Virus record (IMG/VR): IMGVR_UViG_3300008954_000001
From: a virus
Lineage: Duplodnaviria; Caudoviricetes
Length of the DNA stretch: 64,000 nucleotides
Reading direction: 5' to 3' (one strand)
Shown: positions 4,569-62,820 of the stretch, piece by piece
Layout of the letters: each line of letters starts with the position of its first letter
How positions within the stretch are numbered: position 1 is the first letter of the stretch
Translations under genes and position numbers: made by a program
Notes under the pieces: model-generated
What the model was told of the DNA's origin: nothing
The model's input: only the letters and a program-made list of their open reading frames with translations
Database searches by the model: none

Positions 4569-4582
4569 GGTTCACTATACCT

Positions 4583-5059: not shown

Positions 5060-6261
5060 TACTTAACTCCAAACAAATCAAGAATGGTTACTTCGGGAAC
5101 CTCTTGTTTTGAGGTTGTGGTTTCACGGCCCTCAATCCTACAACAAGCAATATCAAGGTAGTCCTCGTTCAAATCGATACCAACATAGTTTCTACCCAAC
5201 TGAAGAGCGACAGCCCCAGTGGTTGCTGATCCAGAAAAAGGATCAAGAACCACACAAGGTTCGGGCCACGGATTATCTTCAACACAAGAACAACCTGTCT
5301 CCCAACCTAAAGTTCGGGAGTACCCATCGACCCGCCCTGACCCAGATTTCCCCACCGTACCTACAGGATTGCCAGCCCCACCTCTTGCATCGTGGGCCGC
5401 CTGTGTTTTAGGGCAGGATGTGCTGTGACCCACAAATCGTTCGGAGACTCGCTTAAAAGGCTCTCCACACGCCGCACAGCGGCCATAGGCACTGGTCCCC
5501 GCCTTGATCATAGGCATAACGAGCTTCGGGGGCCACACGGCGAAATGCGCCCCCTTAAAGGAAGCTGGTGGCACATCCCACAAGGTTCTTTTATTGCCCC
5601 CTCTTATGAGGGCATCTTCGCTAATCGGAGCACCCCTATTGGAACCCTCTCTCTTTTCATTGGGATCGTGAGTCCTTTGATGGCTGTTCCAACGATACTG
5701 GTTCCGTTGAAAGGTTGCTCCTTTCAACGGCTCTCGAATTGCATCTGCATCGTAGTAGTAATGACCACCACTGTCTGGATGAGCAAACAGGAAAACGTAC
5801 TCATGTGCTTTGGTGGGGCGGTCTTTGACCGACTCTGGCATTGGATTAGGTTTCGACCAGATGATATCTGAACGCAAATACCAGCCGTCTTTTTGAAGGG
5901 CGAAAGCCACCCGCCACGGGATGCCTATAAGGTCTTTCGACTTTAATCCTCCCTCATAGCTCCCAGCATAACTATCCCCAAGATTTAGCCAAAGGGTGCC
6001 ATCTTTCCGCAACACTCGTTTGATTTCTCGAAACACCTCAACCAAGGCTTCGGCATATTTTTCGGGGGAGTCTTCCAACCCAAGCTGGTTATCCCCGGCC
6101 CCATAATCTCGTAAGCCGTAATAAGGGGGGCTTGTACAAACTGTGTGGACCGAAGCGTCTTCGAGCAGCTTCAAGCCTTCAACAGCACCAACGCCATACA
6201 GAAGTCTTGCCTTGGGTGGGTTATCCCCGACCGAGTGGAAGAGAGTTCGGTCAACCATCAT
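5059..6261 (-). CDS. N4-C/N6-A DNA methyltransferase (beta-type, intact)
   Basis: Motif IV TSPPY, RVLRKDGTLWLNLGD, IIWSKPNPMPES, HFAVWP, motif I VLDPFSGSATTG. Confidence 0.9.
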   Translation of the reverse strand: MMVDRTLFHSVGDNPPKARLLYGVGAVEGLKLLEDASVHTVCTSPPYYGLRDYGAGDNQLGLEDSPEKYAEALVEVFREIKRVLRKDGTLWLNLGDSYAGSYEGGLKSKDLIGIPWRVAFALQKDGWYLRSDIIWSKPNPMPESVKDRPTKAHEYVFLFAHPDSGGHYYYDADAIREPLKGATFQRNQYRWNSHQRTHDPNEKREGSNRGAPISEDALIRGGNKRTLWDVPPASFKGAHFAVWPPKLVMPMIKAGTSAYGRCAACGEPFKRVSERFVGHSTSCPKTQAAHDARGGAGNPVGTVGKSGSGRVDGYSRTLGWETGCSCVEDNPWPEPCVVLDPFSGSATTGAVALQLGRNYVGIDLNEDYLDIACCRIEGRETTTSKQEVPEVTILDLFGVK

Positions 6262-6905
6262 CCCCCACCCACCAAATCAAACTTCGCCCCTTTCGGGGTT
6301 CGACGGATTCGGTAGGCTCGGTGGGAGGCTTCAACTAAAGCTGGATTGTGTGTCACGAGCAAAATGTCTACCCCCATCCTCTCACATAGAAGACGGAGAA
6401 ACTTGCCCATTGCGTCCACATAATTCGCATCAAAAGCGGGTAAGGATTCATCTAAAAACAAGACGGGTCGAAGACCTCGCCGCATCACTACGATCAATCG
6501 AAGCAGAACAGATTGAACCGTTGTAACAGCACCACCAAAGGCATCGATACAATCCCCTTCTGAAATGGTGCCATCCGGCTGCTTCTGCGTTGTGATCAGG
6601 TCTACCGAAACCTTGTTGTACTTCACCCCTACTTCCGACCGAACCGAGATCTGCTGATCTGAAAAGACCGCACTCAAACCTTCCGTCAGTAGCCCCTCAA
6701 CTGCTTGAACACCAGCGTTCACTTCTGCGTCAATCAATTGACGAAATAACTCGGAAACCAACTGACATAGGTGGCCCTCGCTATCTAATTTACGAATATT
6801 GGTTTTCGTGTCGCCTATACGCCGAGATACTTCATCCCGACGACCAACGACACGATCCACCCTGCTCCGTAATGACGCAACATCGCTGGTGATCTGTTCA
6901 TTCAT
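6258..6905 (-). CDS. Rad50/SbcC C-terminal ATPase half (stand-alone gene)
   Basis: Short coiled coil, signature-like DAFGGA, Walker B LFLDE, D-loop AFD, H-loop LVTH; no Walker A. Confidence 0.85.
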   Translation of the reverse strand: MNEQITSDVASLRSRVDRVVGRRDEVSRRIGDTKTNIRKLDSEGHLCQLVSELFRQLIDAEVNAGVQAVEGLLTEGLSAVFSDQQISVRSEVGVKYNKVSVDLITTQKQPDGTISEGDCIDAFGGAVTTVQSVLLRLIVVMRRGLRPVLFLDESLPAFDANYVDAMGKFLRLLCERMGVDILLVTHNPALVEASHRAYRIRRTPKGAKFDLVGGG

Positions 6906-8104
6906 GCAGATGTCTCTACTGTGGAAGTGTCTGTATCAGGCACCCCTGCGGTCACATTCGTATTGACCGATGTAGTCTTCTGCCGACTGAACATCCAAGT
7001 GATCGCCGTACTGAATCGGAAACCCTCTTCAGGCTCTTCCGTAATGATCACCCAACCACCCTTTTCGTGGCGGCGGCATCGCATCTGAACGGAATCTTCC
7101 GTACACAAGGAAAGCAAACGGGTGATGTGCAGACGACTAATGTTGAAGCCGAAAGACTCCTCCCCACACTCCACCTCAATACCAGCCTTCACGGTCTGGT
7201 ACAGGCTTTCACCTGAAGTAGACTTCATACTCAAAGTAACAACAGCATCCTTACGGGTGATGTTGAGGGTGTTGTCATCCCAACTCGCACCAGAGGCCAA
7301 GAAGTTGATGGCTGAAATCAATTCCGCACGGTCGAGATCCCAAAGCTCTGTGTAGTTGTCCTCCACCTGAACCTTGGGGAAAGCGGCCAGCGGTCGTGCT
7401 TCTCCGAAGACGGCACCTTTACCACCAAGAGCACCAAAGAACTGTGCTCGGTCGGTTTCGTAAATGGTTACTTCGCCATCGCTCTGAAGGGCCAAGAAGC
7501 TGTTCAGTGCGCCCAAGTCCTTACCATGGAGCCGAACCTTGCAGTTCTCAATTCCTGGCACGGAGGACTGACTCATGGCCGTCAAATCAGTACATCGAAG
7601 GGTGCCTTCAATACACTCAACCACACACAGCTTCGGCTGCTTTGTTTCGTCATCGGAAACGAATGGTTTACTGTGGCTCAAAGCCGACCGAAGCTGATCA
7701 GCCCGAACCTTCCCCGTCGCTTCAGCGGAGTTCCAAAGCTCATCCCACCAAGGGAAAGATGCTGGATCGAGAGATTGGAAAAGGTTGTGTCCACGGGGAG
7801 CCGTGGCCTTTACCACCCCTTCCTCCAACTCAAACTCAACCGTAGCGGTATCCGCAAGGGTGTTGAGCCACAGATCGAGCCGCTTGGCCTCAATAGTAAA
7901 GGCTTCCACCCCTTCGTAGGTAGTTCCTGAAATAGGGCAGAAGGCAAAGGTCTTACCTGTCCACCCATACACAGCAACACCATCGCTTTCGTGCGGCCTA
8001 AAAACATAGTGGGAGGTAATATCCCCCGCCGAATTCGCCACACAAGAACGAACGCAAGCGAGTGCCGCTTGCAGGTCAGTAAAAGAAACTTTCATCGTAG
8101 TCAT
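6902..8104 (-). CDS. dnaN: Beta sliding clamp-like protein
   Basis: About 400 aa; LRSALSHSKPFVSDDETKQPKLCVV...LRCTD parallels the DnaN FA.S.DE.RP.L.GV...ATD region; FGFNISRL parallels I.FN..YL. Confidence 0.7.
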   Translation of the reverse strand: MTTMKVSFTDLQAALACVRSCVANSAGDITSHYVFRPHESDGVAVYGWTGKTFAFCPISGTTYEGVEAFTIEAKRLDLWLNTLADTATVEFELEEGVVKATAPRGHNLFQSLDPASFPWWDELWNSAEATGKVRADQLRSALSHSKPFVSDDETKQPKLCVVECIEGTLRCTDLTAMSQSSVPGIENCKVRLHGKDLGALNSFLALQSDGEVTIYETDRAQFFGALGGKGAVFGEARPLAAFPKVQVEDNYTELWDLDRAELISAINFLASGASWDDNTLNITRKDAVVTLSMKSTSGESLYQTVKAGIEVECGEESFGFNISRLHITRLLSLCTEDSVQMRCRRHEKGGWVIITEEPEEGFRFSTAITWMFSRQKTTSVNTNVTAGVPDTDTSTVETSA

Positions 8105-8105
8105 A

Positions 8106-8399
8106 TCAGTTCACTCCGTTTTCATAAGGTTGGAGAGCAGATTCAGCGGTATCCATCGCTTTCTGCAAGGTGTTCATTTCTTTATCGAAACGCTGTTCCA
8201 ATTTAGCGATAGCCTCATCGATCTGCTCTGGCTCGATCTTCTTCGCTCGGCATTCCGCCTCTACAGCCTGCTTGTTAGCCTCGGCTTCCTGAAGACGACC
8301 CTTAAGCCGCTCAACCTGTGCCACCAACTCGGCCCGTCGTTTTGTGGCGTTCTGAAGAACCGCCGTATGATCACTATTCATTTGAACCTCCTGACTCAC
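8106..8399 (-). CDS. Small coiled-coil protein
   Basis: 97 aa with heptad pattern throughout; tightly packed in the operon. Confidence 0.75.
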   Translation of the reverse strand: MSQEVQMNSDHTAVLQNATKRRAELVAQVERLKGRLQEAEANKQAVEAECRAKKIEPEQIDEAIAKLEQRFDKEMNTLQKAMDTAESALQPYENGVN

Positions 8400-9384
8400 T
8401 CTTTTTTACCGAGAGTGTGGGCGAAAGGGCACCCTCGAAACCAATCAAGCCCTCTTCAAAGGGTTCCTCTTTCTTTCTACGGGTCTTCCGTCGAGCCTGT
8501 AGCTGGCCCTGACGCTCAGAACACACCTTTTCATACTCACAGAATTTACAGTTGGAAGGGGAGGGGTTCGCCTCCCATTTCCCTTTCCACATTCCCTTAC
8601 TGGCTTGCCTTGCACGATGCGCCAAACCCTTCAAGTCGTCCATCGTAAAAGGAACCTCCACGATCCCCGACCAATCCTCTTGGTTGTCGGGTTGGTTGTC
8701 GGGAGGACTGCCTATCGGGTATCTGAAATAGATGAAAGCTAATCGATCTGGCATCTGATTATAGGCCAGCTTGAAACATAGGGCGTACCAACGAAGTTGA
8801 TCTGGATCTGTATAAACACCCACCGACTTCGAGTTCTTGCCATCGTAGATGGTGATCCCAGTGTCCTTGCGCCGAACAATCAAATCCGCTCGACCCCCAA
8901 TCGGGTTGTATTTGTCGAGCCAAGTCCTCAAATCCACCTCCGCTCTGGCGTAGGGGCCGAGAATCTTGTTGGCTTTCATGGTTGCCAAATAGTTCAAAGA
9001 CCCATCCAAGCAGGTCTGTAGAAGCTCATCTCGGCTTGGAGTCCACGGCCTATGCCATTCGATGTACTTCTTTTCGACAAGTTTGTTGAAAGTCTTTTCA
9101 ACCAACTGAACCAGTTCGTCCCGCAAAGTATCGGGATACCGCCACATTTCGTTGTTGTAGAGGTGTTCCATTACATCAGCGATCACGATCCCCATAAGCG
9201 CATGGTGCTCTGATTTCTTCTCAGCACCCGGCTTACGCTTGCCTTCACCAGCACCTAAATCAATGCCGGGATAGCCACGAGACCATAAGGTTCGCTGTGG
9301 GCATTCCTCGTACATTGAAAGTGTTGACCAATAGAGTGGTTTCTTCACCCGTTTCTCCCGTCTAATGGGAGAAACTTTACCCAC
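8374..9384 (-). CDS. PD-(D/E)XK nuclease (RecB/AddB/Cas4-like)
   Basis: STLSMYEECP, GRADLI, IYDGKN, QLRWYA, CKFCEYEKVC; alternative GTG start at 9348. Confidence 0.85.
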   Translation of the reverse strand: MGKVSPIRREKRVKKPLYWSTLSMYEECPQRTLWSRGYPGIDLGAGEGKRKPGAEKKSEHHALMGIVIADVMEHLYNNEMWRYPDTLRDELVQLVEKTFNKLVEKKYIEWHRPWTPSRDELLQTCLDGSLNYLATMKANKILGPYARAEVDLRTWLDKYNPIGGRADLIVRRKDTGITIYDGKNSKSVGVYTDPDQLRWYALCFKLAYNQMPDRLAFIYFRYPIGSPPDNQPDNQEDWSGIVEVPFTMDDLKGLAHRARQASKGMWKGKWEANPSPSNCKFCEYEKVCSERQGQLQARRKTRRKKEEPFEEGLIGFEGALSPTLSVKKSESGGSNE

Positions 9385-15580: not shown

Positions 15581-17896
15581 TTATTGGGGCACCCCGTCCA
15601 GAATACGGACACCCAAAGCTGAATTTCGTAGGCTTTCTTTATTGGAGAGCACCGCACGGTGTAGGGCAGAGGCCACACCTACCAAGATGACCTTCTTCCT
15701 CGCACGGGTCACAGCCGTATAAATCAGGTTCCTTTGTAGCTGTCTCCCAAAGGACTCCAAGATAGGCATAACGATAATGTCGTATTCTTGGCCTTGGCTC
15801 TTATGAATCGTTTGAGCATAAGCGAGCCGAAGCAAGCGGTTTGCTGTTTTAGTATCCATAGAGACATAGGAAGCCACTGGCCCGTGGATCTTGACTCGAA
15901 CAAACTTATTCTTCAAATCGATCTCGGAAACCTTGCCCACATCCCCGTTATAGATACCAAGAGTGTAGTCATTGGCCGTAATCATCACTCGGTCGCCTTC
16001 TCGAATATGCCCCGACGCAACTCGAAGTTGACGACAACCCTGACCAGCGGGGTTCAACATTGCCCGTAATTCAGAGTTCAGGTTTGTGACACCAGCGATC
16101 CCCTTATGCCGTGGAGATAACACCTGAAAGTTGGACTCCCTCTCATAGAGCTTGTTGACGGCCTTCAAGATGATGTCCAAAGCGGCATCTTCGCTATTAG
16201 CGGTAATTAAAGAGAAGTCTTTCCCAATCTCAGGCATTTCCCCCGCATGGATAGCGTGGGCCGCTTGTACAATGTCAGACGTTTCGGCCTGTCTGAAAAT
16301 CTCCGTAAGACGCACCTTGGGAACACAATCCGCCCCGATTAGATCACGGAGAACATTTCCTGGCCCCACACTCGGAAGCTGTGCGTGATCCCCCATCAAA
16401 ACCAGATGGGCATCCTCTCGAAGTGCTCCGACGATCCGTGAAAAGGCTTCGATATCAAGCATCGAGGACTCGTCTACCACCACAAATTGTGCTGGATGGC
16501 GGCTATTCACACCGTAAGACCACGACCCCCACGACCCCTTCGCTGACTCCGAACTTCCGACAGCTTCCCCCACAATACCTTCGTAAGAGCTATCCCTGTT
16601 CTTGGTGTCTTTAGGTTTGCCCCCCAAAGCTCGGTGAACCGTACAGGCTGAAGTCACTCCAGTAATGTTCGCTACCCGCTTGGCTGCGATCCCCGTAGGG
16701 GCCAGCAACAACACGTCAAGGTTTTCACTCTTGTCCGATGCCGTCTGGAAACCCAAACTATGAAGAACCTGAACCAACACCTTTAAGGAAGTGGTTTTCC
16801 CTGTTCCTGGGAGGCCACTGAATACAGAAATCGGGGAAGTTAGGGCGTTCTCGACCCCAAGACATTGATCCTCAGTCAACTCAAAGCTCATGTCTTTAGC
16901 TGTTTGCTGAACCATCTTCCGAACCTTGTTTCGGAAGGACTTCTCATTCCACCGTTTAGGCAGCATCCCAAGAACGCTCATCGCAGAAGGAACCGTAAGC
17001 TCCTTCTTTGGAGCACTCAACATCTCCTTCACACGAACAGCAGCGTCTCGTTCAAAGCGGTGCATATCTGGAGCGTACAGCAACTTCCCCATAGGCAAAT
17101 CCCGCTCAATTACTACACTCCCCTTCTTGTGAGCAGCCGCTAAACTTGGGGCTATCTCTTCGTTAGTTAGTCGTGGACAACGGGATTGAATCTCCCCAAG
17201 CACCTGACCCAACGTCAAATAGGTGTGGCCTGTGCTACACGCTTCTCGCACAGATGCCGCACAGACACCCTGCACCCTATAAGGAGAGTCCAAAGGAACC
17301 TCCAACTTTTGAGCCAAGGTATCCCCACGGGCTAAAGAGAAGCCCGCTTCCGTGATCGCCCATGGGTTTTCCGTAACAACCTCAATGCAATCCGTACCAA
17401 AAATCCTGTACAACTTACTGACTTCAGATCCACTAAAGCCCAAATCCATTAGGACAGGGATGGTGTCGTAAAACAGGCGGGTCTTTGTCCAAGTTCGAGC
17501 CAAATGGAGGGCTTCAAACTGTGTAAGATCCCCTTTCTCTTGGAGAAGGTCTTCATCAGAAAGGGAGTCGAATAGGTTTTCTCCGAAAACCTTGTCCAGC
17601 CGTTCCATCGTTAGGGAGCTACAACCGTTCGCTACCAAGGCCCGCTTGATCTTTTCGTTCGACCAACCACCTTCAACAGCGGGGGCTTGGTGAATCTTGA
17701 CCTGATCGCCATGCGTCTGGTCATTAACCCACTCCCCTTTAATCCCTAACCATGTACCCGAAGAAGGAGGAGAGCCGATTACAGGCCCCTTAAAGGTGGC
17801 CGAACCACCCTGATCTAAGGCCAGCTTAAAGATGTAGAAAGGTTGAGACTCGTCAGCGAAAATAACCCTGTCTACAACACCGCTAAAATACATCAT
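15581..17896 (-). CDS. recD2: RecD2-like SF1B helicase
   Basis: N-terminal OB and HhH (NPW) regions, GLPGTGKTT, APTGIAAKR, VDESSM, GDHAQLPSVGPG, IFRQ, AQTIHKSQGQE, YTAVTRAR. Confidence 0.92.
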   Translation of the reverse strand: MMYFSGVVDRVIFADESQPFYIFKLALDQGGSATFKGPVIGSPPSSGTWLGIKGEWVNDQTHGDQVKIHQAPAVEGGWSNEKIKRALVANGCSSLTMERLDKVFGENLFDSLSDEDLLQEKGDLTQFEALHLARTWTKTRLFYDTIPVLMDLGFSGSEVSKLYRIFGTDCIEVVTENPWAITEAGFSLARGDTLAQKLEVPLDSPYRVQGVCAASVREACSTGHTYLTLGQVLGEIQSRCPRLTNEEIAPSLAAAHKKGSVVIERDLPMGKLLYAPDMHRFERDAAVRVKEMLSAPKKELTVPSAMSVLGMLPKRWNEKSFRNKVRKMVQQTAKDMSFELTEDQCLGVENALTSPISVFSGLPGTGKTTSLKVLVQVLHSLGFQTASDKSENLDVLLLAPTGIAAKRVANITGVTSACTVHRALGGKPKDTKNRDSSYEGIVGEAVGSSESAKGSWGSWSYGVNSRHPAQFVVVDESSMLDIEAFSRIVGALREDAHLVLMGDHAQLPSVGPGNVLRDLIGADCVPKVRLTEIFRQAETSDIVQAAHAIHAGEMPEIGKDFSLITANSEDAALDIILKAVNKLYERESNFQVLSPRHKGIAGVTNLNSELRAMLNPAGQGCRQLRVASGHIREGDRVMITANDYTLGIYNGDVGKVSEIDLKNKFVRVKIHGPVASYVSMDTKTANRLLRLAYAQTIHKSQGQEYDIIVMPILESFGRQLQRNLIYTAVTRARKKVILVGVASALHRAVLSNKESLRNSALGVRILDGVPQ

Positions 17897-19311: not shown

Positions 19312-21432
19312 TTAGGCAGACCCGAAGCTGACCGTACAAGTTTCACCGTCGCAGAACTTATCGTCTGCTTCGTGTTGCGCCATAGTCAAATCCAACGGCT
19401 TAATCTTCGCCATTAGTTTCTCGTATTTAGCTTTGGTGATCTCAATGTAAGGTGCTTGCACATAACCATGCTCATCAATCGGAAGTAGCGAGATCGACTT
19501 CAACTGATCCTCGTACACCGACAAACAAGTGGCGATATCTTTCGCTTCTTCAGGCTTGAAAGTAACCGTAATACTAACTTGGTTGTCGGCCCAGTATTTC
19601 TGCATGTCAGCCGCATTAGCAAACTGCTCCCACATGGTCACATCACTCTTCGACTTAATGAAATGCTTCTCATGGACAGGGAAGCTCACAACCCACGAGT
19701 TAGGCTGATAGGCGCACTTCTCCATTGGATACCCCGCCTTCTTGACCACAGCCACCAGTGGAGAGGACGCAATCAGTCGAATATTACGGATGTAGTATTC
19801 GGCATGGGGGTAGTGAATCCCTGGCGTAGCCCCACAGAGTAGGCTTACCGTGCCTGACGGTTTTACGCTGGTCATCTTCCTACTGGAAGGCACACAAAGC
19901 CAATCCGAGTAGATCGTATCGAGATTGCGGATATAGTTGTACCCCTCATCACACCAACGTAGGAACTCTCGGCGGCCCAACTTGACCATCGCCTGAATGA
20001 TTCCCGACTGAGAGCACCCAATACGGCGATTTCTCAACATAACGGCGTTTGTTCGAGCGTCATGTGTGGGGATCAAGGTCACAGTTTTTGCATACAAATA
20101 CGCAAACTTGAGGGTTCTTTGGTAATCCTCAAAAGAATCGTGATGGGCAGGGAAAGTCTCAACCAAGCAGCAAAGCTCGAAGCTCTCCAAGCTCTGCTCA
20201 GAGCAGGGATTTGATCCCATCACCCGACGATCTTTGTCGTTTCGGGCATCTTTGAGCCGACCGTAACCACGAATAGCATCTAACCAAATGACCCCTGGCT
20301 CGCCGTTAGTGGCGATGGCCTCGGAGATTTCCTCGTAATCCATCCCAATCGTGCCAAAAATACTATTGTTCGAGGCCCATCGGTGGGTACGAAGAGGGTG
20401 CTTTTCGATCTTCCGCTCCAAGGAGAGGGCTTGTTTGCTGTCTCCCTTACCTTTGGACTTCAAGTTTCCAAGTTCCTCCACCCAACGATTGAGTTTGGTG
20501 GGATCTTTCAAGGCCCTGAATTCTTTGTCGTCGGGATCACCAAACATGATCTCAGCAGTACGGCGGACTCCGCCCGCAACAACGCACTTTCCAACCATGT
20601 TGAAGATATCAACGATCTGAGAAGATCCGATCCGATAAGGCTTTTCATCTTTCGGCATCAAAAGCGTAGTTAGCTCGGATACCAACGTCTTTAAGGGTTC
20701 GGGACCAGAGGCCACGCCACCAAACCCGTTGATTGGGGTTCCTTCAAGACGCACTTCGGAAAAGTCGATGTTGAGCGGGTAGTACCCCTTGCCCACAAAG
20801 CTGTTCAAGATTGTGCGAGCCAACTCAACCCAACCTTCTCTGGAATCCTCTACAACGTAAGGCTCCGTCCGGGATCGGGGGTTCTGAATCTTAACTTTGC
20901 CCGCACCCCGGCAGTCGCCACCTACGCCTACGCCAAGCATCGACATATCCATCAAGAAGCAAAACGGGGCCGCAAAATCGGTTTCAATGTCCTTTGTGGA
21001 CACGAACGCACAGTTGTTCAGGGCCGCCGAACCCTTCTCATAAATAACATCGGTCCCCATCGTCCACAGCCCACGGCCAGGAGGGGTCCATTTGAATGAC
21101 CACATTCGCTCGTACATCTCTTGGGCTGATTTCTGTGCCTTGGGTTCATTCCAAGGCAGACTGAGCTTCCGACAATGAATCTTCTGAACATTGAAGGTGC
21201 CTTCAATCACCCGCCGACACGTCTCCCACCACTCTTCGGTCATTCCATCTTCTTTCACCCGTGCGTAAGTACGCTTGTAGGTGAAATGGCCTGTTGGCCC
21301 CCACTGTGGTTGTCGTGTCTTGTAATCTTCCATAAAGGACTCGCTGAGAGAAAAGACTCGCACTTTTCTTCCATCAGCCCCTTCGGGGAAGAACTCATAA
21401 TTTAATCCCATTTGTTTTATCCTCCGCATCAA
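19312..21432 (-). CDS. nrdJ: Class II (B12-dependent, monomeric RTPR-type) ribonucleotide reductase
   Basis: PPGRGLW, LNNCAF, GSNPCSEQSLESFELCCL, RRIG, TSVKPSGTVSLL, C-terminal CDGETC. Confidence 0.93.
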   Translation of the reverse strand: MMRRIKQMGLNYEFFPEGADGRKVRVFSLSESFMEDYKTRQPQWGPTGHFTYKRTYARVKEDGMTEEWWETCRRVIEGTFNVQKIHCRKLSLPWNEPKAQKSAQEMYERMWSFKWTPPGRGLWTMGTDVIYEKGSAALNNCAFVSTKDIETDFAAPFCFLMDMSMLGVGVGGDCRGAGKVKIQNPRSRTEPYVVEDSREGWVELARTILNSFVGKGYYPLNIDFSEVRLEGTPINGFGGVASGPEPLKTLVSELTTLLMPKDEKPYRIGSSQIVDIFNMVGKCVVAGGVRRTAEIMFGDPDDKEFRALKDPTKLNRWVEELGNLKSKGKGDSKQALSLERKIEKHPLRTHRWASNNSIFGTIGMDYEEISEAIATNGEPGVIWLDAIRGYGRLKDARNDKDRRVMGSNPCSEQSLESFELCCLVETFPAHHDSFEDYQRTLKFAYLYAKTVTLIPTHDARTNAVMLRNRRIGCSQSGIIQAMVKLGRREFLRWCDEGYNYIRNLDTIYSDWLCVPSSRKMTSVKPSGTVSLLCGATPGIHYPHAEYYIRNIRLIASSPLVAVVKKAGYPMEKCAYQPNSWVVSFPVHEKHFIKSKSDVTMWEQFANAADMQKYWADNQVSITVTFKPEEAKDIATCLSVYEDQLKSISLLPIDEHGYVQAPYIEITKAKYEKLMAKIKPLDLTMAQHEADDKFCDGETCTVSFGSA

Positions 21433-49489: not shown

Positions 49490-51907
49490 TTAACAGCCCC
49501 AGCGTTTGATTTCAGCTTTGAGGGTTGCTTGAAGTTTCTTGTTCAGGTTGTCCCCGAAGACCAACAGTAAGACTTCTTCCATGCGGTTCGCAAAATGAAA
49601 AGTCATCTCATCTTTGATCTCCTGTGGGATCTCTTCCGTGTCCTTTTCATTCCATGCGGGCATAACGATTTCCTGAATCCCCGCCCTGTGTGCCGCCAAG
49701 ACCTTTTCTTTGATTCCACCTACGGGAAGTACAGCACCACGGAGCGTTGCCTCTCCCGTCATGGCAATGTCATGTCGCACAGGAATGTCTAAAAGCAAAG
49801 ATAGAATGGCCGTCATCATGGTCACACCAGCACTCGGACCATCTTTCGGCACCGCCCCACTGGGAACATGAACATGAAAATCTGTGTCGTTGAAGGATTC
49901 TTTTGTAACCTCAAGTTTCGGAGCTATGCTCCAAACCCAACTGGTCGCCACCCCTACGGACTCTTTCATCACATCGCCTAAAGAACCAGATAGCTTCATG
50001 TTCCCCTTGCCGTGATGCTTGGTCGCTTCAATGAACAGGATGTCCCCACCCGCTGCGGTCCACGCCAATCCACAAACAACACCGGGAACAGCCGTGCGCT
50101 GTTTGATTTCGTTGTGGTACTTCTCAGGCCCTCGGATCTCCCGCACCTTTTCGGGGGTGATAACCCAAGGTTCTCGATCTTCGGGTTCGAGGTCACCGTC
50201 CTTTCGACGCTCGGCTACGCCTCTGGCGATGCGGCGGCAAATGGCAGCGATTTCTCGTTTTAGGGATCGAACACCCGCTTCTCGTGTGTAGTCCTCGATG
50301 ATCTTTCGGATGGCATCGTCTCCGAACACAACAACTTCATCATCAAGACCGTGCTCTTCAATATTCTGCGGGAGAGAAAAACCTCTGGCGATTTTGAGCT
50401 TGTCTTCGGGGGTGTAGCCCGGAATGTGGATTACCTCCATACGGTCATGCAAAGGACTGGGAATAGTATCCGCCCGATTTGCGGTAGCGATGAAAAGGAT
50501 CTTGCTCAAATCGTATTCAACATCGAGATAATGATCGAGAAATTCGTTGTTCTGTTCAGGGTCGAGAACCTCAAGTAACGCCGAAGCGGGGTCGCCTCGA
50601 TGATCGCTGACTAACTTATCGATCTCATCAAGAACGAGTACGGGGTTGATTGTTCCCGCTTTCTTCATCCCCTTGATGATCCGACCGGGCATCGACCCAA
50701 TGTATGTCTTGCGGTGACCTCGAATTTCAGCTTCGTCTCTCACCCCGCCAAGGGAAATGCGAGCCAACTCCCTACCTGTTGCACGAGCCACAGATTTCGC
50801 AAGAGAGGTTTTACCTACTCCTGGGGGGCCTACCAAACAAAGGATTGGTCCCTTCATGTCTTTTTTGAGCATCCGAACAGACAAGTATTCGAGGATGCGA
50901 TCTTTGACCTTCTTTAGGCCGTAGTGGTCTTCGTCAAAAATCTTCTGCGATTCTTCAATGTCGATTTCTTCCCCGGTTTCTTTTGCCCACGGGATCGACA
51001 CCATCCAATCTAAATAGGTCTGTGAGACGGTGTACTCGGAACTCTGCGGATTCATCTTAACCATGCGACGGAACTCTTTGAGACAGAGTTTCCTCACATC
51101 GTCGGGCATGTCCATCTCGGTCAGCTTCCGCTTCAACTCATCGAATTCGTCCTCATCGTCTCCTTCAACACCAAGCGTATCCAGTTCTTTTCGGATTGCC
51201 TTTAGTTGCTCTCGGAGCATGTATTCTTTTTGTGTCTTGTCGATGCCTTCCCGAACAGTCTTTTCAATGCGGTTCATCATTTCGGCCCCCTCCAACTCTC
51301 GCTGGAGGGCTTCAATGACGTAATCCATTCGGGCTTCTTGATTTAGGATCTCCAACACAACCTGCTTATCTTCCAGCTTGGTCAGCAGATTGTGAGCCAA
51401 GAGGTCAGATAGGGTTCCTGGGGAAACCACGCTTTCGATAACGAAAAAGGCATCTTTCGGAATATCGGGTGTTCGAGAGATATACTGTTTTGCTAAGTGG
51501 TGGAGTGTGTTCACTTTAGGCATCACTGACTCTTTGTCAGCGAGTTCTTCTTGTACTACCGTACATTCGGCCCGAAGGATTCCATCAGTATCCAACCATT
51601 CCGTAACTCGGCAGCGGGCGATCCCTTGTAGGACAACGGCGATCTTATTCTTTTGAACGACACGAGTTACACGAACTATGGTGCCTACTTCATACAGGTC
51701 TTTGGGGGCAGGATCGTCTAAATCGGGATCACGTTGGGCAATAACGGCCAGTAAGCCATTTCGTTTTGCTTCCTTGATCGCAGCGATAGACTTTTGCCTC
51801 CCCACATTGATCGGTGTGGAAAGGTTCGGATAAAGAACCGTATTTCGCACCGCCACGATGGGTAGCTCTAACACGTCTGGGAGCTTTACTTCGGAACCGT
51901 CACTCAT
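49490..51907 (-). CDS. lon: Full-length Lon (La) protease
   Basis: LON N-domain, [22 protein letters not shown], catalytic PKDGPSAG and GGIKEK. Confidence 0.96.
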
Positions 51908-52710: not shown

Positions 52711-54297
52711 CTAAGTAGTCTGAATGATGGCGGTCTCGGCAGTAATAAGGGTGGAAGCAACTGAAATAGCTGCGGAAATGACGCATCGTGCCATCTTTGC
52801 GGAGTCCACAATGGGGGAGCCTTCCAGCAAGTTTCGCACTTCGCAGGTAACGGGATCGAAGCCTTCAAAGGACGGTATATCCGCATCCTTCGTATGGAGT
52901 TTAGCCACCTCTCCGTGGGTTCCTCCCGATTCGGCTAATTTCATAAAGGGCTGTCTTAGGGCATTGGCTACGATTTTCCAGCCGTGCCGCCCATTTGCTT
53001 CCGCCTCAAGGATATCTCCAAGAAGCAACAGGCCGTTGCCCGCTCCTGGAACAACCCCTTCTTCTAAAGCACCTCGGATAGCTCCAAGGGAGTCCTCAAT
53101 CCGAGCACGGCGTTCTTTCATTACCGCTTCTGTAATCCCACCCACTCGAAGGATGATCAAACCACCAGACAAGCCAGCGGCTTGTTCGTTTAGGCGGTCG
53201 GCATCGTAGTCAGAGGTGGAGGAAGATGCTTGCGCTTTGATCTCACGGACCCGCTGAGAAATCGTCTCGGCGGCTTCGGGGAAAGACTCAAGCGTTGTAA
53301 CCTTTTGAGTGACGAGTGCCTTATGAACACTCCCGAACCATTCGGCATCAAAGCTACCCCGATGATCGAAACCTTGCTTGGGATCAATGAGCGTGGCTCC
53401 CGAAACCGCCGCTAAATTCTGGAGCCACTCCTCTTGCCAGCGGCCCGTGCCGGGAACTTTGACGGCACAAGAATGTACGATCCCTTTCTTATTGTTCACC
53501 ACCATCGTTTGAAGGGCTTCCCCTTCAATGAAAGGGGCGAACAGTAACAGATGATTATCGGGCCATTGACTGGCTTCCTCCAAGATCGCTTGAACATCAG
53601 CCACCGTTTGAAGCCCCGTGCTGACCACAGCCACCAAAGGAGCTTTAAGGTCTCGATCAACCCCATTGTTCGTGAAGTATTCGCTGGCCCAACCAGATGG
53701 CAGTTCCATGCCGTCCTTGGTTTCGATTTCAAGACCAAGGGTCACACCGTCTTCAACCGAAACTGTGCCTTCTGTGCCCGCCATCATGCAGGCTTTCGCC
53801 AACGCTTCCGCCACCTCTTGATCCCCGTTCGAGGCGATCAGGGCTACGCTTTCCACTAAATCTTGCGACTTGATTGGGATGGCTAACTCCGCAACCAAGG
53901 CTACAGCCATCTCGGAGGCTTCCTTCATCTCACGAGAAAGAGCCACGGGGTCGAAGCCCGCAATCGCAAGTTTCTGGCCTTCCCACAAGGCTTGGTAAGC
54001 CACAATCGCTGTCGTAGTTGTACCATCCCCCGCCATCTGCTCTACTTTCAGACAGGCTTCCTTAATCATAGCGGCACCAAGGCCCGTTAATCCTGGCCCT
54101 GGCTGGACTTCTCTGGATACAGTGACCCCATCGGAAGTCGCTTGAATATGGTTGAAGGCTTTATCCAAAAGGACGATTCCACCTTTAGGGCCAAAGGTAC
54201 ATCCGATGGCCTTAGCCGCAATTCCAGCACCGTTCAGGATACCCTTGCGAGCATTTGTCCCTGAAACGACTCGAATAGGCTTTTTGTCTTTGGCCAT
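52711..54297 (-). CDS. groEL: Divergent GroEL-like chaperonin
   Basis: TFGPKG, SDGVTV, AGDGTTT, IEGEAL..MVVN, GG..ILRVGG.TE..MKERRARIED, EEGVVPG; no GGM tail. Confidence 0.93.
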   Translation of the reverse strand: MAKDKKPIRVVSGTNARKGILNGAGIAAKAIGCTFGPKGGIVLLDKAFNHIQATSDGVTVSREVQPGPGLTGLGAAMIKEACLKVEQMAGDGTTTTAIVAYQALWEGQKLAIAGFDPVALSREMKEASEMAVALVAELAIPIKSQDLVESVALIASNGDQEVAEALAKACMMAGTEGTVSVEDGVTLGLEIETKDGMELPSGWASEYFTNNGVDRDLKAPLVAVVSTGLQTVADVQAILEEASQWPDNHLLLFAPFIEGEALQTMVVNNKKGIVHSCAVKVPGTGRWQEEWLQNLAAVSGATLIDPKQGFDHRGSFDAEWFGSVHKALVTQKVTTLESFPEAAETISQRVREIKAQASSSTSDYDADRLNEQAAGLSGGLIILRVGGITEAVMKERRARIEDSLGAIRGALEEGVVPGAGNGLLLLGDILEAEANGRHGWKIVANALRQPFMKLAESGGTHGEVAKLHTKDADIPSFEGFDPVTCEVRNLLEGSPIVDSAKMARCVISAAISVASTLITAETAIIQTT

Positions 54298-58288: not shown

Positions 58289-58621
58289 CTAATTTTTAGA
58301 CTCGCTTTTTAGGATCTTACGAGCCTCACCCGCTTCTGGGAGGCGATCTTTGACGTAGGCTTCGAGATCGAAATCGGTAATCGAAGATTTGAACTCGTTG
58401 AAGGCCCTTTTCCAATCGGGGTCAAATTCAAGCTCAGTCTTACCTTCGTGTCCGTGAATGGCTCGAACTTCACCAATCGAATCATAGATCGTGGTTGAGG
58501 GATGTTCAGATAACCATGTGACAGCGACCTTGCCGTTATCAAACACGAAACCTTGAGCCACACGTCCCGTGCCGCTAACGCCGCTTTCGTCTTCTTTCCG
58601 TACTAAATAGAACATTCTCAC
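58289..58621 (-). CDS. Conserved phage hypothetical protein
   Basis: F.L.R.ED.SGVSGTG.VA.G..F..G.V...W...HGH.GKT pattern. Confidence 0.75.
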   Translation of the reverse strand: MRMFYLVRKEDESGVSGTGRVAQGFVFDNGKVAVTWLSEHPSTTIYDSIGEVRAIHGHEGKTELEFDPDWKRAFNEFKSSITDFDLEAYVKDRLPEAGEARKILKSESKN

Positions 58622-58720: not shown

Positions 58721-59412
58721 TTACGTTGCAGGTTTGCACCCTACGACCACAGGTTCCCATGCTGGCTTTAGAGCAGTCCCCACACCACGATAAGGTAACG
58801 CTGTTTCACAAAGTTCCGTATCTTGCTCATCCGCTTCGATTTCTGAACTGAACATGCGGCCCTTCCGATAGTCTACTTGGCCCGTAGGGGCGTAAGATTC
58901 CCCCATACGAGCCATGCGAAGGTTCTTGGGGGCCGTACCCCCTGTCAACACCAGTGCGTTGATTGCACGGGCCACGTTGTGCGATTTTGGAAAGCCGCTT
59001 CCATAGAGCCACCCTTCAAGGCGGATATCCGTGAAGCCCGCTTCGGACATGGCGGCAGCCAGACGATGATACGTTCGAGTACCAGAGAACGCCTTGATGA
59101 TCCCAGATGGGCGTAGGACTCGGTAAGACTCCTGCAACCAAAGAAGGTGCCACTCTTGCTGTCGCTGAAGAACATCTTCGGACTTCCCGTAAGAAGCGGT
59201 GCCTCCGTATCGAACTTTAGATCGACCGTATGGGTTATCTATGTCGGAGAACTTTCCGTCCCCCGGTTGGTCAGGGACGCATTTGTCCCAATCTTTCCCC
59301 ATAAACTCCAAACCTAACCGTAGGGAGGATCACAAATGATGCTCCCTACGCTTCCCTCCTTCATTTCGGACATTCGAGCGATACAATCGCCGTGTAAAAG
59401 ACGAAGGATCAT
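58721..59412 (-). CDS. DNA MTase catalytic half C, interrupted after DPPYG (proposed +5 nt ribosomal hop)
   Basis: ATG 59412 overlaps the upstream TGA; 32 aa to DPPYG then TAG (59316-59314); LEFMGKDWD resumes in another frame at 59311; ends ALKPAWEP..GCK. Confidence 0.8.
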
Positions 59413-60266
59413 TTAACCCCTACACAAACTGGTTCCCAACTTGGCTTGAGGGCCGTACCCCACCCGTCCCATGTTTCGGACTCTGGTGTAGCGGGAGCAG
59501 TAACAGGGATTTCTGATGGTCCTTCAGAAGTGAAGGCCACCCCTGGAACGGCTTTGCGGTATCCGACGATCTCACGCTCGGCTTCAGCGAAGAACTCGTC
59601 CAACTCTCCATCCATTTCAGTTTCGCTCTCGCAACCCAACACCCGCTTCATGGTTTCCCACTTCTCAGGTGAGGGAAGGACGTTGAACCAAGGGTCGGGC
59701 TGCTTGCCGTCCTCTGGAACAGACAAGTAGTTGCAAGCCCGAAAGCCACACTCCTTATCGATCTGAGAGCGGGTCTTGCCCGAAGCGTCGAACAACTTAC
59801 GAAGTTCCTCTTTCAAAACCGTGACGGACGAATTCATACGACCGTGCTGCTTATCGATGGCCTTGCCAATGTTCATAGACTTTGGAAACCCAGAACCGTA
59901 AGTCCACGCCTCTACCCGAATGTCCTTCAAGCCAGCGTGTTCCATAGCCTCGGCCATTCGGTGAAACGTCCTTGTCCCTCCAAAGGCTTTGACGACTCCA
60001 CCGGGTTTGAGGACACGGAAAACCTGACCCCAAAACTCTTGGCTAAAGGCGATCCCAGTTCCGTCCCATTCTTTACCCATGAAGCCTTTGGATTTGCTTG
60101 GCCCACTCCGTCCATAGGGAGTTTCCAAGTCCCCCGGTTGAGGGCTTCCATTACGAGAGTTCCCAACAAGGTCGTAAGGAGGGTCACACACGAAGGCGGC
60201 GACCGAGTTGTCTTCCATTTCACTGAGGCGAATAATGCAATCGCCATGCTTCAAGTTTAAGTTCAT
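59409..60266 (-). CDS. DNA MTase catalytic half B (uninterrupted), with HTH-like insert
   Basis: True start ATG 60266 (ATGA overlap); HGDC, CDPPYD, RVLKPGG, YGSGFPKS, ALKPSWEP; no SAM-binding motif I. Confidence 0.85.
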   Translation of the reverse strand: MNLNLKHGDCIIRLSEMEDNSVAAFVCDPPYDLVGNSRNGSPQPGDLETPYGRSGPSKSKGFMGKEWDGTGIAFSQEFWGQVFRVLKPGGVVKAFGGTRTFHRMAEAMEHAGLKDIRVEAWTYGSGFPKSMNIGKAIDKQHGRMNSSVTVLKEELRKLFDASGKTRSQIDKECGFRACNYLSVPEDGKQPDPWFNVLPSPEKWETMKRVLGCESETEMDGELDEFFAEAEREIVGYRKAVPGVAFTSEGPSEIPVTAPATPESETWDGWGTALKPSWEPVCVGVK

Positions 60267-60867
60267 AGCTTTACTCCTACGATTATGGGTTCCCAAGCTG
60301 GCTTCAAGGCTGTCCCCCAACCTTCCCAAGGCTTCGCTTCGGTGGTTGTTACAGACCATTTTCCACCGGGCTTGTTTCGATATTGTCCCGCCTTCGTGCC
60401 TTGCCACTCTTCACGGTCGAACTCATGGCGGATCATTTCGGTAGTGGGATCTTCTTGGCCGCTCATGGCACGGGCATCGGCAATCTGTTTGGGGGACGAC
60501 CCTCCGAACAGGACCGTGGCTTCAATGTTCTTTCCAATGTTATAGGACTTTGGAAAGCCAGAACCGTACATCCATGCCTCTATGCGTATATGTGCATATC
60601 CAGCTTGCTCCATAGCGGCTGCGAGCCTGTGGTAAGTGCGAGTACCGCTAAAGGCTTTGATATTTCCGCCAGAACGAAGAACTCGGTGGGCCTCTTGTAG
60701 CCAGCGCACATGCCAAAGTTGTTGTGAATCTAACTTGTCCCAACCTTTACCCATAAATTCGAGGCCATTCAGCCGTAGGGAGGATCACAAATAATCCCCC
60801 CTACGCAGCCCTCCTTCATCTCGGACATGCGCTGTACGCAATCCCCAAGCCTAATGGTTAGATTCAT
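60263..60867 (-). CDS. DNA MTase catalytic half A, interrupted after DPPYG (proposed +8 nt ribosomal hop)
   Basis: ATG 60867 overlaps the upstream TGA; 32 aa to DPPYG then TGA (60771-60769); LEFMGKGWD resumes in another frame at 60763; ends ALKPAWEP..GVKL. Confidence 0.8.
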
Positions 60868-61073
60868 CCTGAATACCCGTCCTTGGCCCAACCGCCACCT
60901 TTCAATGAAAAGGAGGTCTTGGAAATGAGCTTCTTTAACTTGCCTTTGCCCTTGTCCTTCTTCTTACCTTTGCAAAGGTCTTTAGAACAGGTCTTCAAAG
61001 GGTCTTCAGACATACGCTGCATCACTTCAAAGCAATGCCCGCACCTTTCACACTCGTACTCATAGATCGCCAT
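60864..61073 (-). CDS. FmdB-family Zn-ribbon protein
   Basis: MAIYEYECERCGHCFEVMQRMSEDPLKTC...KLKKLIS...F.LKGGGW..DGY. Confidence 0.88.
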   Translation of the reverse strand: MAIYEYECERCGHCFEVMQRMSEDPLKTCSKDLCKGKKKDKGKGKLKKLISKTSFSLKGGGWAKDGYSG

Positions 61074-62230
61074 TAACTGCCCATACCGAACAGATCGGAC
61101 AATCCAACTGCTTCCTCTTCTTTGGTTTCCGTTGGGGCTTCCGAGTCAATCTTTGCCATACGGCCACGCCATTCAGAGGAATCCCAATACCGAACACGGG
61201 CATCGGCAATCCGAATGTAGTCTTCCTCTTTTTCGATGCCGATAAAGTCATGTCCTGTATGAAGGGCGGCGATCCCAGTTGACCCTGACCCCATAAAAGG
61301 ATCAACCACAGGGCCGTTGCCCTTAGGGACAGTGTTGAGTAGGGCTTCCATGATGGCGTAGGGCTTTACGGTCGGGTGGTCATTACCAAGCCGCTTTCCA
61401 TCCTTACGAAGTTTCGCACAACCCGCTTCTCGTTCCGAACGAGAAGCCTTGGGGACATACCAAAAGCCTTCGGCATCAGTAACGAACAAGATGCTGTCCC
61501 GAATCTCGAACCCACCATCCTCTAAACGGCAAGCACCAACATGACCTGTGGGCATATCGTCGGGAGCGACCAAGAGAATGTGTCCTCCCGGTTTGAGGAC
61601 TCGATCCATCTCTTTCGTTTGATCTTCGGTAGGTGTCCCTTCCGCAATCAAACCGTGAATGGATTGATCCTCCACCTCGGACAAGTCGTAAGCATTTACG
61701 TCCTTCATATAAAGGACACCCCCATCCCCCGTGATGTGGGACGGGTCAATCAAGTCCGTCAAATACGACAGCAATTCGCTTGGGATAGCGTCATTATTTT
61801 CCATGTTATCCACCTCTTTGAAATATCTTGATGCCCCACCAGTATCTTCATACCCTCGAACAGTCGTGTCCCTGACATCATTTGAGTTCCATTCCACCGA
61901 AGATCCTTCAGTAGAATAAATAGGTTCCCCGGTAGGTTGCCGTAAACCCGTCGATGAAATCCCACTTTGTTCGTCTAAGGCTCCCGAACTGGTTTCGGTA
62001 AGGACCACATTTGCGGGCCACCGTCCTTCAGGATGTTGGCCTTGGGCTTCAAGGTCGTCCTTCATTCCGAAGTTGATTGACGAAGCCTCTCGGTTGTTTG
62101 ACCCAATGGACAAGGTATCGGTTGTACCGATACGCACATTGTCGATGTTCAGCCCACCACACCCATGTTTCAAGGTGTTGGCGGCGACCGTCCCTATGAG
62201 GGGCTTTCTGGCTACTGTGATTCCTTTCAA
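61073..62230 (-). CDS. DNA MTase SAM-binding half with an inserted degenerate catalytic-like domain
   Basis: TTG 62230 with GGAGG RBS overlaps the MT-A70 stop; begins ITVARKPLIG; GRWPAN, GGASRYF, PKASRSERE, HPTVKP, motif I VVDPFMGSGSTG; no DPPY. Confidence 0.85.
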   Translation of the reverse strand: MKGITVARKPLIGTVAANTLKHGCGGLNIDNVRIGTTDTLSIGSNNREASSINFGMKDDLEAQGQHPEGRWPANVVLTETSSGALDEQSGISSTGLRQPTGEPIYSTEGSSVEWNSNDVRDTTVRGYEDTGGASRYFKEVDNMENNDAIPSELLSYLTDLIDPSHITGDGGVLYMKDVNAYDLSEVEDQSIHGLIAEGTPTEDQTKEMDRVLKPGGHILLVAPDDMPTGHVGACRLEDGGFEIRDSILFVTDAEGFWYVPKASRSEREAGCAKLRKDGKRLGNDHPTVKPYAIMEALLNTVPKGNGPVVDPFMGSGSTGIAALHTGHDFIGIEKEEDYIRIADARVRYWDSSEWRGRMAKIDSEAPTETKEEEAVGLSDLFGMGS

Positions 62231-62820
62231 GGAGACACCTCCGCAATTTGGTTGCCCCAAGAGTGCCAACCGGGGCGGTCTCTCCGTGCGAACACTTCTA
62301 AGTAAGGGCCATCTGAAACCGTCTCCACCAATTCATAGAACGCATCGGGTTTCCGTGAATGGGCGGTTCGGTCAGCATGGACCACAGTCGGGGGCCTTCT
62401 ATCTGTGGAAGGGACCATTGCTTTCCCTTTGACCCCAAACAAAAGAAGTTCATGCTGACCCCGCATATATTGGCCTAAACCTTTTCGTTGTTTGACCCAC
62501 ACGGCGTTGGTTACATAACGGAACCCAAGTTCTTCCATGAGCCACAAGCCGTCCGTTAGGTAGTTGTTTGTTGCCCATAACCACAGGTGGCAATCGTCGG
62601 CGGGTCGCCAAAGATCCCCTGATTGGATTACCGCTGGCATGTCCTTGGTCTTTACCAAGGGATAGTGTCGATCCGCACCTCGCTTAATGGTTCCCCCTCC
62701 CACTTCGGTCCATGGAGGGTCCATCATAATTGCTCGGTATCCCGCTTGAGGTACTTCCCCAAGCGACATGATGTGCGGGGGCTTTTGAACCCCCATGGCG
62801 AACAGATCAGACAGTTCCAT
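62227..62820 (-). CDS. MT-A70-family adenine methyltransferase
   Basis: MDPPW, HLWLWATN, GLGQYMRGQHELLLFG, HSRKP, YLEVFAR, GW.SWGNQ. Confidence 0.92.
   Translation of the reverse strand: MELSDLFAMGVQKPPHIMSLGEVPQAGYRAIMMDPPWTEVGGGTIKRGADRHYPLVKTKDMPAVIQSGDLWRPADDCHLWLWATNNYLTDGLWLMEELGFRYVTNAVWVKQRKGLGQYMRGQHELLLFGVKGKAMVPSTDRRPPTVVHADRTAHSRKPDAFYELVETVSDGPYLEVFARRDRPGWHSWGNQIAEVSP

Follow-up and report, generated by a model that had tools for sequence, protein, structure and literature searches.

The locus described here lies on the minus strand of a 64,000-nucleotide stretch of DNA (hereafter the window) from a virus of the Caudoviricetes (IMG/VR record IMGVR_UViG_3300008954_000001), and consists of a tight string of genes around what appears to be an amino-methyltransferase divided among several polypeptides. 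The open reading frames (ORFs) of the window give, in order, a lysin-like gene (63988-62807), which is the first of the string, an MT-A70 family methyltransferase of 197 amino acids (aa) with a DPPW motif (62227..62820; PF05063, 72 bits, profile positions 1-172 of 172), a 385-aa protein that we call S (61073..62230), a FmdB-type Zn-ribbon protein of 69 aa (60864..61073; Pfam PF09723, TIGR02605) ending in ...SFSLKGGGWAKDGYSG, and three genes for catalytic halves, A (60263..60867), B (59409..60266) and C (58721..59412). B is an uninterrupted frame of 285 aa, while A and C are each broken after 32 codons (60867-60772 in A and 59412-59317 in C) and resume, at 60763 and 59311 respectively, to run to stops at 60263 and 58721. 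MT-A70 is the first gene of the coupled part of the string, its TGA overlapping the TTG start of S (TTGA), and the junctions that follow read TAATG, ATGA, ATGA and ATGA. Overlapping stop and start codons of this kind are the usual marks of translational coupling, and their presence at all five junctions bears out the proposal of a first-pass annotation of this DNA that the half-genes are coupled with the MT-A70 and FmdB genes.

The sequence motifs of a beta-class methyltransferase are shared out among these genes in a complementary fashion. A, B and C each carry DPPY (motif IV), RVL(K/R)(P/S)(G/S)G and YGSGFPKS together with a distinct insert of their own, and all three stop just past TALKP(A/S)WEPxxVGxK. 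S starts at a TTG (62230) with the ribosome-binding site GGAGGT 6 nt upstream, reads MKGITVARKPLIGTVAANTLKHG... at its N-terminus, and holds the only S-adenosylmethionine (SAM)-binding motifs of the operon, HPTVKP (motif X, 61378-61361) and DPFMGSGSTG (motif I, 61303-61274); DPPY is found only in A, B and C. The order IV...X-I is thus absent from every single chain of the operon, but is obtained when a catalytic half and S are taken together. The C5-cytosine methyltransferase motifs are not those of these pieces: in the Pfam scan all of them matched the amino-methyltransferase family PF01555 and no other family at E<=0.01. A, B and C cover positions 3-111 of this profile at 19-20 bits (28-111 for the second part of A), each below the gathering cut-off of 26.7 bits, whereas S passes the cut-off at 78.3 bits, yet only via positions 144-219. 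The first-pass annotation had described three DPPY half-genes with these motifs, and a partner gene with its own ribosome-binding site, HPTVKP and motif I; every ORF and motif was located at the coordinates given there, and from the junction overlaps, the motifs and the Pfam ranges we therefore find its observation to be correct.

The point at which the family is cut can be read from intact relatives. Mycobacterium phage Nerujay gp61 reads ...ALKPSFEPIVVARKPLVGTVAANVLEHG... through the join, and when its sequence across the join, ...ALKPSFEPIVVARKPLVGTVAANVLEHGTGALNID..., is compared with the ends of A, B and C and with the opening of S at the cut, MKGITVARKPLIGTVAANTLKHGCGGLNID, the start of S (ITVARKPLIG) falls at the join point. 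As the continuous sequence of gp61 matches both sides, the break point is exact, and the same point recurs in dozens of divergent proteins, in agreement with the earlier claim of a family cut at one precise place. Judged from the alignments, the chain is cut within or just after strand beta7, with both sides retaining a copy of that strand. The likeness to single-chain phage beta-class enzymes (PF01555; Nerujay gp61 and the metagenomic proteins P0273, P0278 and P0280) extends to an identical set and order of motifs: DPPY, FMGKxWD, RVLKPGG, YGSGFPKS, TALKPxxEP, ARKPLxGTVA, LNID, RWPAN, SRFF, HPTVKP, DPFxGSG. Furthermore, the helical hairpin insert of about 125 aa in B (..ECGFRACNYL..PDPWFNVLP..) is also present in intact P0273, P0278 and P0280; the split enzymes and the unsplit ones are closely related. 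The single-chain enzymes differ in being one polypeptide and in having no copy of the eroded segment (N') described below; here the chain is cut after beta7 (in split relatives also after SRFFK) and one C part serves several catalytic halves. In the broader family, inteins are found at two fixed points, after H-P of HPTVKP in the SAM half and at YG|SGFPKS in the catalytic half (carriers P0131, P0154, P0266 and 3167-5020 of L002). L002 itself (LR756508.1, a 484-kb uncultured phage) has four tandem intact paralogues of the same methyltransferase family at 3167-8494, the third of which (6335-7333) has lost DPPY and HPTVKP and may represent an intermediate toward an eroded copy such as N'.

Alignments of 18 and of 42 relatives resolve S into three segments. 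Residues 1-142 form a T module (beta7-like ITVARKP, GGLNID, GRWPAN, GGASRYFK), which corresponds to the middle module of intact enzymes, residues 143-262 form N', an eroded copy of a catalytic half, and residues 263-385 form the C part, with FWYVPKAS, motif X, motif I, FIGIE and an acidic tail ending LSDLFGMGS. In N', LSEVEDQSIHGLIAEGTP parallels LSEMEDNSVAAFVCDPPY of B and is followed by RVLKPGGHILLVAP and GFEIRDSILFV, with EGTP (61631..61642) at the place of DPPY. Across the 42 aligned relatives of S, GTP is nearly invariant at this place, and DPPY was present in none of those read residue by residue; among free-standing cores, P0162, P0199 and P0060 have GTPT and P0193 has GVPT, while P0175 (TDPAPE) lacks GTP. 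The designation of this gene in the first-pass annotation as one SAM-binding half consequently holds for motifs X and I, but S is not a plain half, as it includes a T module and a DPPY-less N' in addition. An internal GAGGTG lies 6 nt before an ATG (Met143; 61802..61816) exactly at the T|N' border; this methionine is kept in the closest relatives, and the free-standing 221-265 aa cores of other phages begin there, so Met143 is a possible second start giving a free N'-C core.

The family of S is large, with 28,060 library proteins matching at E<=0.001 in an exhaustive search, many of their representatives beginning at MKxIxxxRKP or at the N' border. The best matches include free N'-C cores (P0162, P0175, P0199, P0060 and P0193), proteins with two or three tandem T modules (P0011, P0014 and P0122) and the intein carriers P0131 and P0154. 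A PDB sequence search returned only generic beta-class enzymes, over the motif X/I region only, and no solved structure with a T module, and NCBIfam has no model above its cut-off for T, for this MT-A70 or for the N halves, as we term the catalytic halves hereafter. A DNA search of a phage collection with the 4.3-kb region gave no match and an IMG/VR scan with the single S protein found no close relative, whereas an alignment-based scan did recover relatives.

These relatives, in which the first-pass annotation had proposed to look for the same split, keep the kit of parts and vary its composition. In L003 (TARA/ENA), where S is 61% identical, the locus is syntenic with that of the window and reads lysin, MT-A70, a free T (200 aa), T-N'-C, Zn-ribbon, a second free T (153 aa), four N halves and the small gene that also follows in the window. 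In L008, T-N'-C is accompanied by three free T and five N halves, and in L007 by two N halves; MT-A70 is kept upstream of S, and the Zn-ribbon directly downstream of it, in all three. In the distant low-GC phage contig L006 there are two N halves, four T-like genes and a free N'-C core, with the Zn-ribbon one T gene after the core, making the Zn-ribbon a conserved member of the cluster, and L010 has six N, six T and one core. The relatives thus cut the enzyme at a second point, T|N'-C, which makes the system in them a three-part one (N, T and N'-C). Conversely, L009 (a 289-kb IMG/VR contig) encodes N-T-N'-C, and hence the order IV...X-I, in a single open frame in which N still has its beta7 (EPIIVCRK) and T its beta7-like strand (LIYIGRKP), a natural fusion by which the parts are functionally linked.

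For a census, hidden Markov models for N, T, N' and C were run over 87 fetched loci, 80 of them from IMG/VR. Where N' is absent (77 loci), 66 ordinary N-T-C genes, two free N ORFs and no free T were counted. Free N halves are present in 8/8 independent N'-bearing loci against 2/77 of the others (Fisher p = 9e-10), and all 21 free T modules are in N'-bearing loci. The N'-C core is single in every N'-bearing cluster, whereas free N halves number 1-6 and free T 0-6. DPPY is invariant in 37/37 aligned N halves, none of which has any SAM-binding motif.

The pieces are also maintained by purifying selection rather than decaying, since the proportion of nonsynonymous differences (pN) between the window and L003 is far below a saturated proportion of synonymous differences (pS, 0.75-0.85): A and C have pN values of 0.19 and 0.33, S of 0.25 and the Zn-ribbon of 0.285, similar to that of the neighbouring lysin (0.20), and MT-A70 has 0.10. 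Decay under relaxed selection, which had been named in advance as an outcome that would refute the split-enzyme idea, is thereby contradicted.

Structure prediction provides a view of how the pieces might fit together. An AlphaFold2 model of S built with 42 relatives has a mean predicted local distance difference test score (pLDDT) of 81.5 and a predicted template modelling score of 0.70, and its N-terminal strand, at pLDDT 97, is built into the fold. Foldseek matched this model to M1.HpyAVI, CcrM and M.BceJIV, but with a root-mean-square deviation (rmsd) of ~20 A and TMt of 0.22-0.33. With VIA-align, residues 257-366 alone superpose on the C parts of RsrI, CcrM and BceJIV at an rmsd of 1.7-3 A, and residues 141-259 match class I methyltransferase folds in a superposition of their own. 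A control model, that of intact P0273, superposes on the same beta-class enzymes with TMt mostly 0.6-0.77. From this separate superposition, set against the canonical control, N' does not fill the canonical place beside beta1 in the S monomer model.

Complex prediction was performed for S with B, each given as an alignment, in three runs and with three controls, the score being read against a mark reached by 58/80 solved complexes and 2/110 mismatched pairs. S with B scored an ipSAE of 0.88-0.89 in the three runs, which share at least 80% of contacts (partner pLDDT 73), and the best control scored 0.00. The tightest predicted contacts are between S 308-310 (beta1, just before motif I) and B 24-27 (beta4, just before DPPY), and between S 329-333 (beta2) and B 3-7; in addition, N' (S 226-234, PTGHVGA) touches the TRTFHR helix of B (97-106) and T (S 71-75, RWPAN) touches the TALKP loop (B 270-277). 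The model therefore has the canonical sheet, with beta4 next to beta1, rebuilt in trans, motifs X and I of S pairing with the N half. At positions of the predicted interface A is identical to B in 48/74 cases (65%) and C in 45/74 (61%), compared with 37/211 (18%) and 52/211 (25%) elsewhere, so that this predicted surface is the best conserved part of the three halves.

Taken together, we favour the view, to which we assign a probability of roughly 0.6, that the operon encodes a multi-subunit beta-class amino-methyltransferase assembled by fragment complementation, in which one S serves alternative N halves. An ancestral single chain would have consisted of N (motifs IV-VIII and a variable hairpin), T (the middle) and C (motifs X and I-III), and would have been broken after beta7, such that A, B and C each supply N only and S supplies T, N' and the sole SAM-binding C part. 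One N half at a time would dock on the C part of S, beta4 beside beta1 and its N-terminal strand beside beta2, and so bring DPPY to the SAM pocket, with T and N' alongside as a non-catalytic pseudo-protomer, much as dimeric beta-class enzymes have a recognition subunit. A, B and C would have a common docking surface and two differing inserts and would compete for the one S, and therefore several methylation specificities could be drawn from one cofactor-binding scaffold, presumably protecting phage DNA from host restriction. Production of A and C would require a short GGY-stop-GGY ribosomal hop, so that their amounts would be set at translation. DPPY suggests N6-adenine as the target; that the assembled enzyme is active, that its substrate is DNA, that the specificities are distinct and that their use is anti-restriction, we infer.

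Several points weigh against this view. Likeness to solved single-chain structures tends to carry the halves of a split enzyme through complex prediction, so the score speaks for compatibility and not for binding, and the residues of the interface double as motifs of the catalytic core, which would be conserved anyway. Structure prediction of every half with S had been proposed in the first-pass annotation; it covered B, with a score of 0.88 against 0.00 for the controls. The non-canonical position of N' comes from predicted models and its role is an interpretation of them. N and T modules are not matched in number (3:1 here; 6:6, 5:4 and 2:4 elsewhere), and the rules of assembly are not evident from them. 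Short ribosomal hops are usually inefficient, and for this reason A and C could be minor products. Finally, the window covers 64 kb of a genome of ~320 kb, and other partners could exist.

The alternative that survives best, although we consider it unlikely, accepts that the enzyme assembles and denies that A, B and C are specificity variants: reading would reside in T, or specificity would be low, and the multiple copies of N would be a matter of dosage, timing or robustness. The number of free T in relatives, which varies from 0 to 6, suggests a swappable reader and so speaks for this; the window has only one T. Against it, most of the difference among the N halves falls in two insert regions, which are conserved from orthologue to orthologue: B orthologues are 60-67% identical over their full length, the 125-aa hairpin being conserved to the same degree and recurring in intact enzymes. 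Moreover, the inserts are shuffled among paralogues. The third N half of L003 (9156-9890) is a mosaic, with a first insert like that of C (..NPYGRSKVRYG..) and a hairpin like that of A (..GGSSPKQ(I/V)ADARA..), the two variable regions recombining independently. A further protein, P0259 (NCBI, 459 aa), carries a hairpin domain almost identical to the insert of B, but within an N half of no relation that has DPPS and otherwise different motifs and precedes a T module, and points to either recent insert shuffling between methyltransferases or a chimeric assembly.

A second, less probable alternative is that only B works with S, A and C having been inactivated by indels so as to yield at most a 32-aa peptide and a truncated protein from the FMGK methionine. 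Both interrupted genes do have an in-frame stop right after DPPYG, and gene callers split each into two ORFs, which, with the general inefficiency of short hops, speaks for such a reading. In A, ...ICDPPYG is followed by TGA, and 8 nt (60771-60764) lie out of frame before the sequence resumes at CTC 60763 (LEFMGKGWDK...); in C the TAG overlaps the landing GGT, and 5 nt (59316-59312) lie out of frame before TTG 59311 (LEFMGKDWDK...). The remainder is in the -1 frame in both. Three other genomes have such a site, and the five read TAC GGC TGA AT GGC CTC (A), TAC GGT TA GGT TTG (C), TAC GGC TGA AT GGC TTA (L003), TAC GGC TAA AT GGC CTG (L007) and TAC GGC TGA CT GGC TTA (L008). All five have matched GGY take-off and landing codons with a stop directly after take-off, and the GGC-stop-NT-GGC arrangement is kept among the four GGC genes despite three variants of stop and spacer (TGA AT, TAA AT and TGA CT), a pattern that is hard to reconcile with inactivation.

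The predicted product of a hop, in which the Gly-tRNA would pass from the first GGY to the second, with the junction peptide ...CDPPYGLEFMGK..., has the DPPYG-L(E/S)FMGK of the uninterrupted paralogues (L003 7932 and 9237; L008 8872 and 9549). The orthologue of C in L003 (9887-10558) is uninterrupted. In gene A a 13-bp hairpin (60775..60804) ends on the UAC before the take-off GGC, the 62-nt stretch folding at -29.4 kcal/mol (z -3.7), and in gene C a hairpin (59319..59350) ends on the first base of the take-off GGT, at -24.2 kcal/mol (z -4.1); in neither case did any of 200 shuffles fold as well. Such a hairpin is predicted at the take-off codon in 5/5 interrupted genes (z -3.7 to -4.7, with 0 of 200 shuffles folding as well) and in 0/9 uninterrupted paralogues (z -2.6 to +1.1), one of which shares the 5' arm while the Pro-Pro codons of its 3' arm are changed synonymously. 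The form is 13 bp in gene A and two stems split by a C/C mismatch in the other four. Both parts of the interrupted genes are under purifying selection, and contigs of four marine runs, two of which may be the window's own source, cover both sites without indels; the sequencing runs listed with this stretch gave marine DNA metagenome contigs only, none being from RNA.

The matched codons, the hairpins and the indel-free contigs support a programmed short hop as the explanation of the interruptions in A and C. A -1 frameshift, which would add LNG, LTG or LG after DPPYG, is less likely, as this insertion is seen in 0/37 aligned halves and GGC offers no cognate codon for a -1 slip. Were a hairpin to re-form behind the ribosome, this would fit current ideas on forward bypassing (bioRxiv 10.1101/2024.12.09.627546; PMC5462505). 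The putative hop resembles the bypassing of T4 gene 60 in its matched Gly take-off and landing codons, its stop right after take-off and its mRNA structure (PMC5462505; bioRxiv 10.1101/2024.12.09.627546), but differs in a gap of 5 or 8 nt against 50 and in a hairpin 5' of the take-off codon.

Two further observations concern these sites. Four substitutions common to the contigs of runs X2-X4 (59341, 59350, 59353 and 59354) lie upstream of and in the 5' arm of the hairpin of gene C; two are synonymous and one changes Gly to Ala, the interruption is unchanged, and together they look like a co-existing strain variant. A second hairpin (GUCCUC...GAGGAC), which includes the GGAGG of Lys-Glu-Asp codons, precedes the take-off hairpin in the interrupted genes of L003 (8570-8593), L007 (8642-8665) and L008 (11334-11357); in A and C of the window GGAGG is kept and the stem is weaker.

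Slightly less probable again is the absence of any complementation, with S self-contained and binding SAM or regulating without catalysis (for instance as a cofactor sink or together with MT-A70) and the DPPY halves acting alone in DNA binding or anti-restriction. S does have all the secondary-structure elements of the permuted fold bar a working motif IV. Nevertheless, in the monomer model N' lies away from the canonical place beside beta1, the N halves have kept DPPY throughout while being devoid of SAM-binding motifs, and free N halves are almost confined to loci with N'-C, to which they are fused in one locus. That tandem methyltransferase genes are instead decaying into these pieces, or that the pieces result from misassembly, can be set aside as very improbable: the tandem intact paralogues of LR756508, one with eroded motifs, offer a precedent, but here every piece has a pN far smaller than its pS, dozens of divergent proteins have one and the same split point, stop and start codons overlap at the junctions in the manner of coupled genes, and contigs of four runs carry the same sequence.

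How does the proposed enzyme compare with known systems? M.AquI and M.EcoHK31I are natural DNA methyltransferases of two polypeptides that must come together (PMC3404938). They are alike in that the enzyme is encoded as separate chains, and a need for both here has indirect support from co-occurrence, the L009 fusion and the model of S with B, but they are C5-cytosine enzymes with other split points and a single copy of each part, and they have no alternative catalytic halves, eroded copy or free middle modules. In dimeric beta-class enzymes such as M.EcoP15I Mod2, CcrM, METTL3-METTL14 and MTA1-MTA9, one protomer reads and the other catalyses, and motif IV of METTL14 is eroded (PMC7544214). 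N' likewise has an eroded motif IV and packs against the catalytic half in the model of S with B; unlike in those dimers, whose partners are complete folds on separate or identical chains, N' lacks a separate SAM-binding half and is joined in one chain to the very SAM half that would serve the catalytic protomer. Multispecific phage C5 methyltransferases of the SPR, phi3T and rho11s type combine one catalytic core with several recognition modules to cover several targets (cited in PMC7544214, refs 86-87). The layout of relatives with two or three tandem T modules (P0011 and P0122) is similar, but the chemistry and family are different, and in the C5 enzymes a single chain carries every module, with only one copy of the catalytic half. 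Two-chain C5 enzymes with single parts, heterodimers with a dead partner and multispecific single-chain phage enzymes are thus already known, while in open-access text we found no account of a beta-class or adenine methyltransferase split into N, T and N'-C with several N per SAM half.

A more far-reaching version of this reading can be put forward tentatively, with odds that we would place clearly below even for its parts taken jointly. It regards the system as a translationally tuned, combinatorial methyltransferase organised as a covalently tethered pseudo-dimer with S as its hub. T and N' would be a permanent recognition pseudo-protomer, and the open SAM half would take any of several DPPY halves; a single cofactor site would be shared by three active sites in this phage and by as many as six in relatives, every one with a target of its own; and two of the halves would be dosed by a new, very short programmed hop driven by the hairpin re-forming behind the ribosome.

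Short acidic/hydrophobic peptides are found at the termini of three methyltransferases in the window: GLSDLFGMGS at the C-terminus of S (61073-61102), MELSDLFAMG at the N-terminus of MT-A70 (62791-62820) and TILDLFGVK at the C-terminus (5059-5090) of a 400-aa methyltransferase (6261-5059). The terminal peptide is conserved in L003, L006, L007 and L008. We take these peptides to resemble sliding-clamp-binding tails (bacterial QL[SD]LF), and by this analogy they could hold the enzymes at the replication fork or at a hub common to all three.

Gene C is followed directly by a 110-aa gene (58289-58621, minus strand) that matches phrog_7499 and shares 78% identity with its L003 counterpart. The orthologues from L003, L007 and L008 carry the Pfam tag PF26761 (Acb5), and the gene may have a counter-defence role beside the methyltransferase cluster. 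Elsewhere in the window there are a GroEL-like chaperonin (52711-54297), a ribonucleotide reductase (19312-21432), an exonuclease V/Dda-like helicase (15581-17896) and an 805-aa protein (49490-51907) that matches a phage family yet to be characterised and, more weakly and over one stretch, a clamp-loader-like AAA+ ATPase. Such gene content (chaperonin, ribonucleotide reductase, helicase) is typical of giant phages. As the S protein is also found on contigs as long as 323 kb and the stretch recurs in marine metagenomes, the DNA probably comes from a giant phage of the sea.

If our interpretation is correct, this would be the first natural amino-methyltransferase known to us to be built by fragment complementation, with one SAM scaffold for several catalytic halves. 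It would explain the large unannotated families of 'half' methyltransferase genes in giant-phage metagenomes, where DPPY halves often go unnamed because their Pfam scores fall below threshold, and it would provide a natural template for split, targetable adenine methyltransferases. The interruptions of A and C would constitute a second, comparatively well-supported family of programmed bypassing, with very short gaps. For the phages themselves, the arrangement would be a compact route to multiplying methylation specificities against host restriction.

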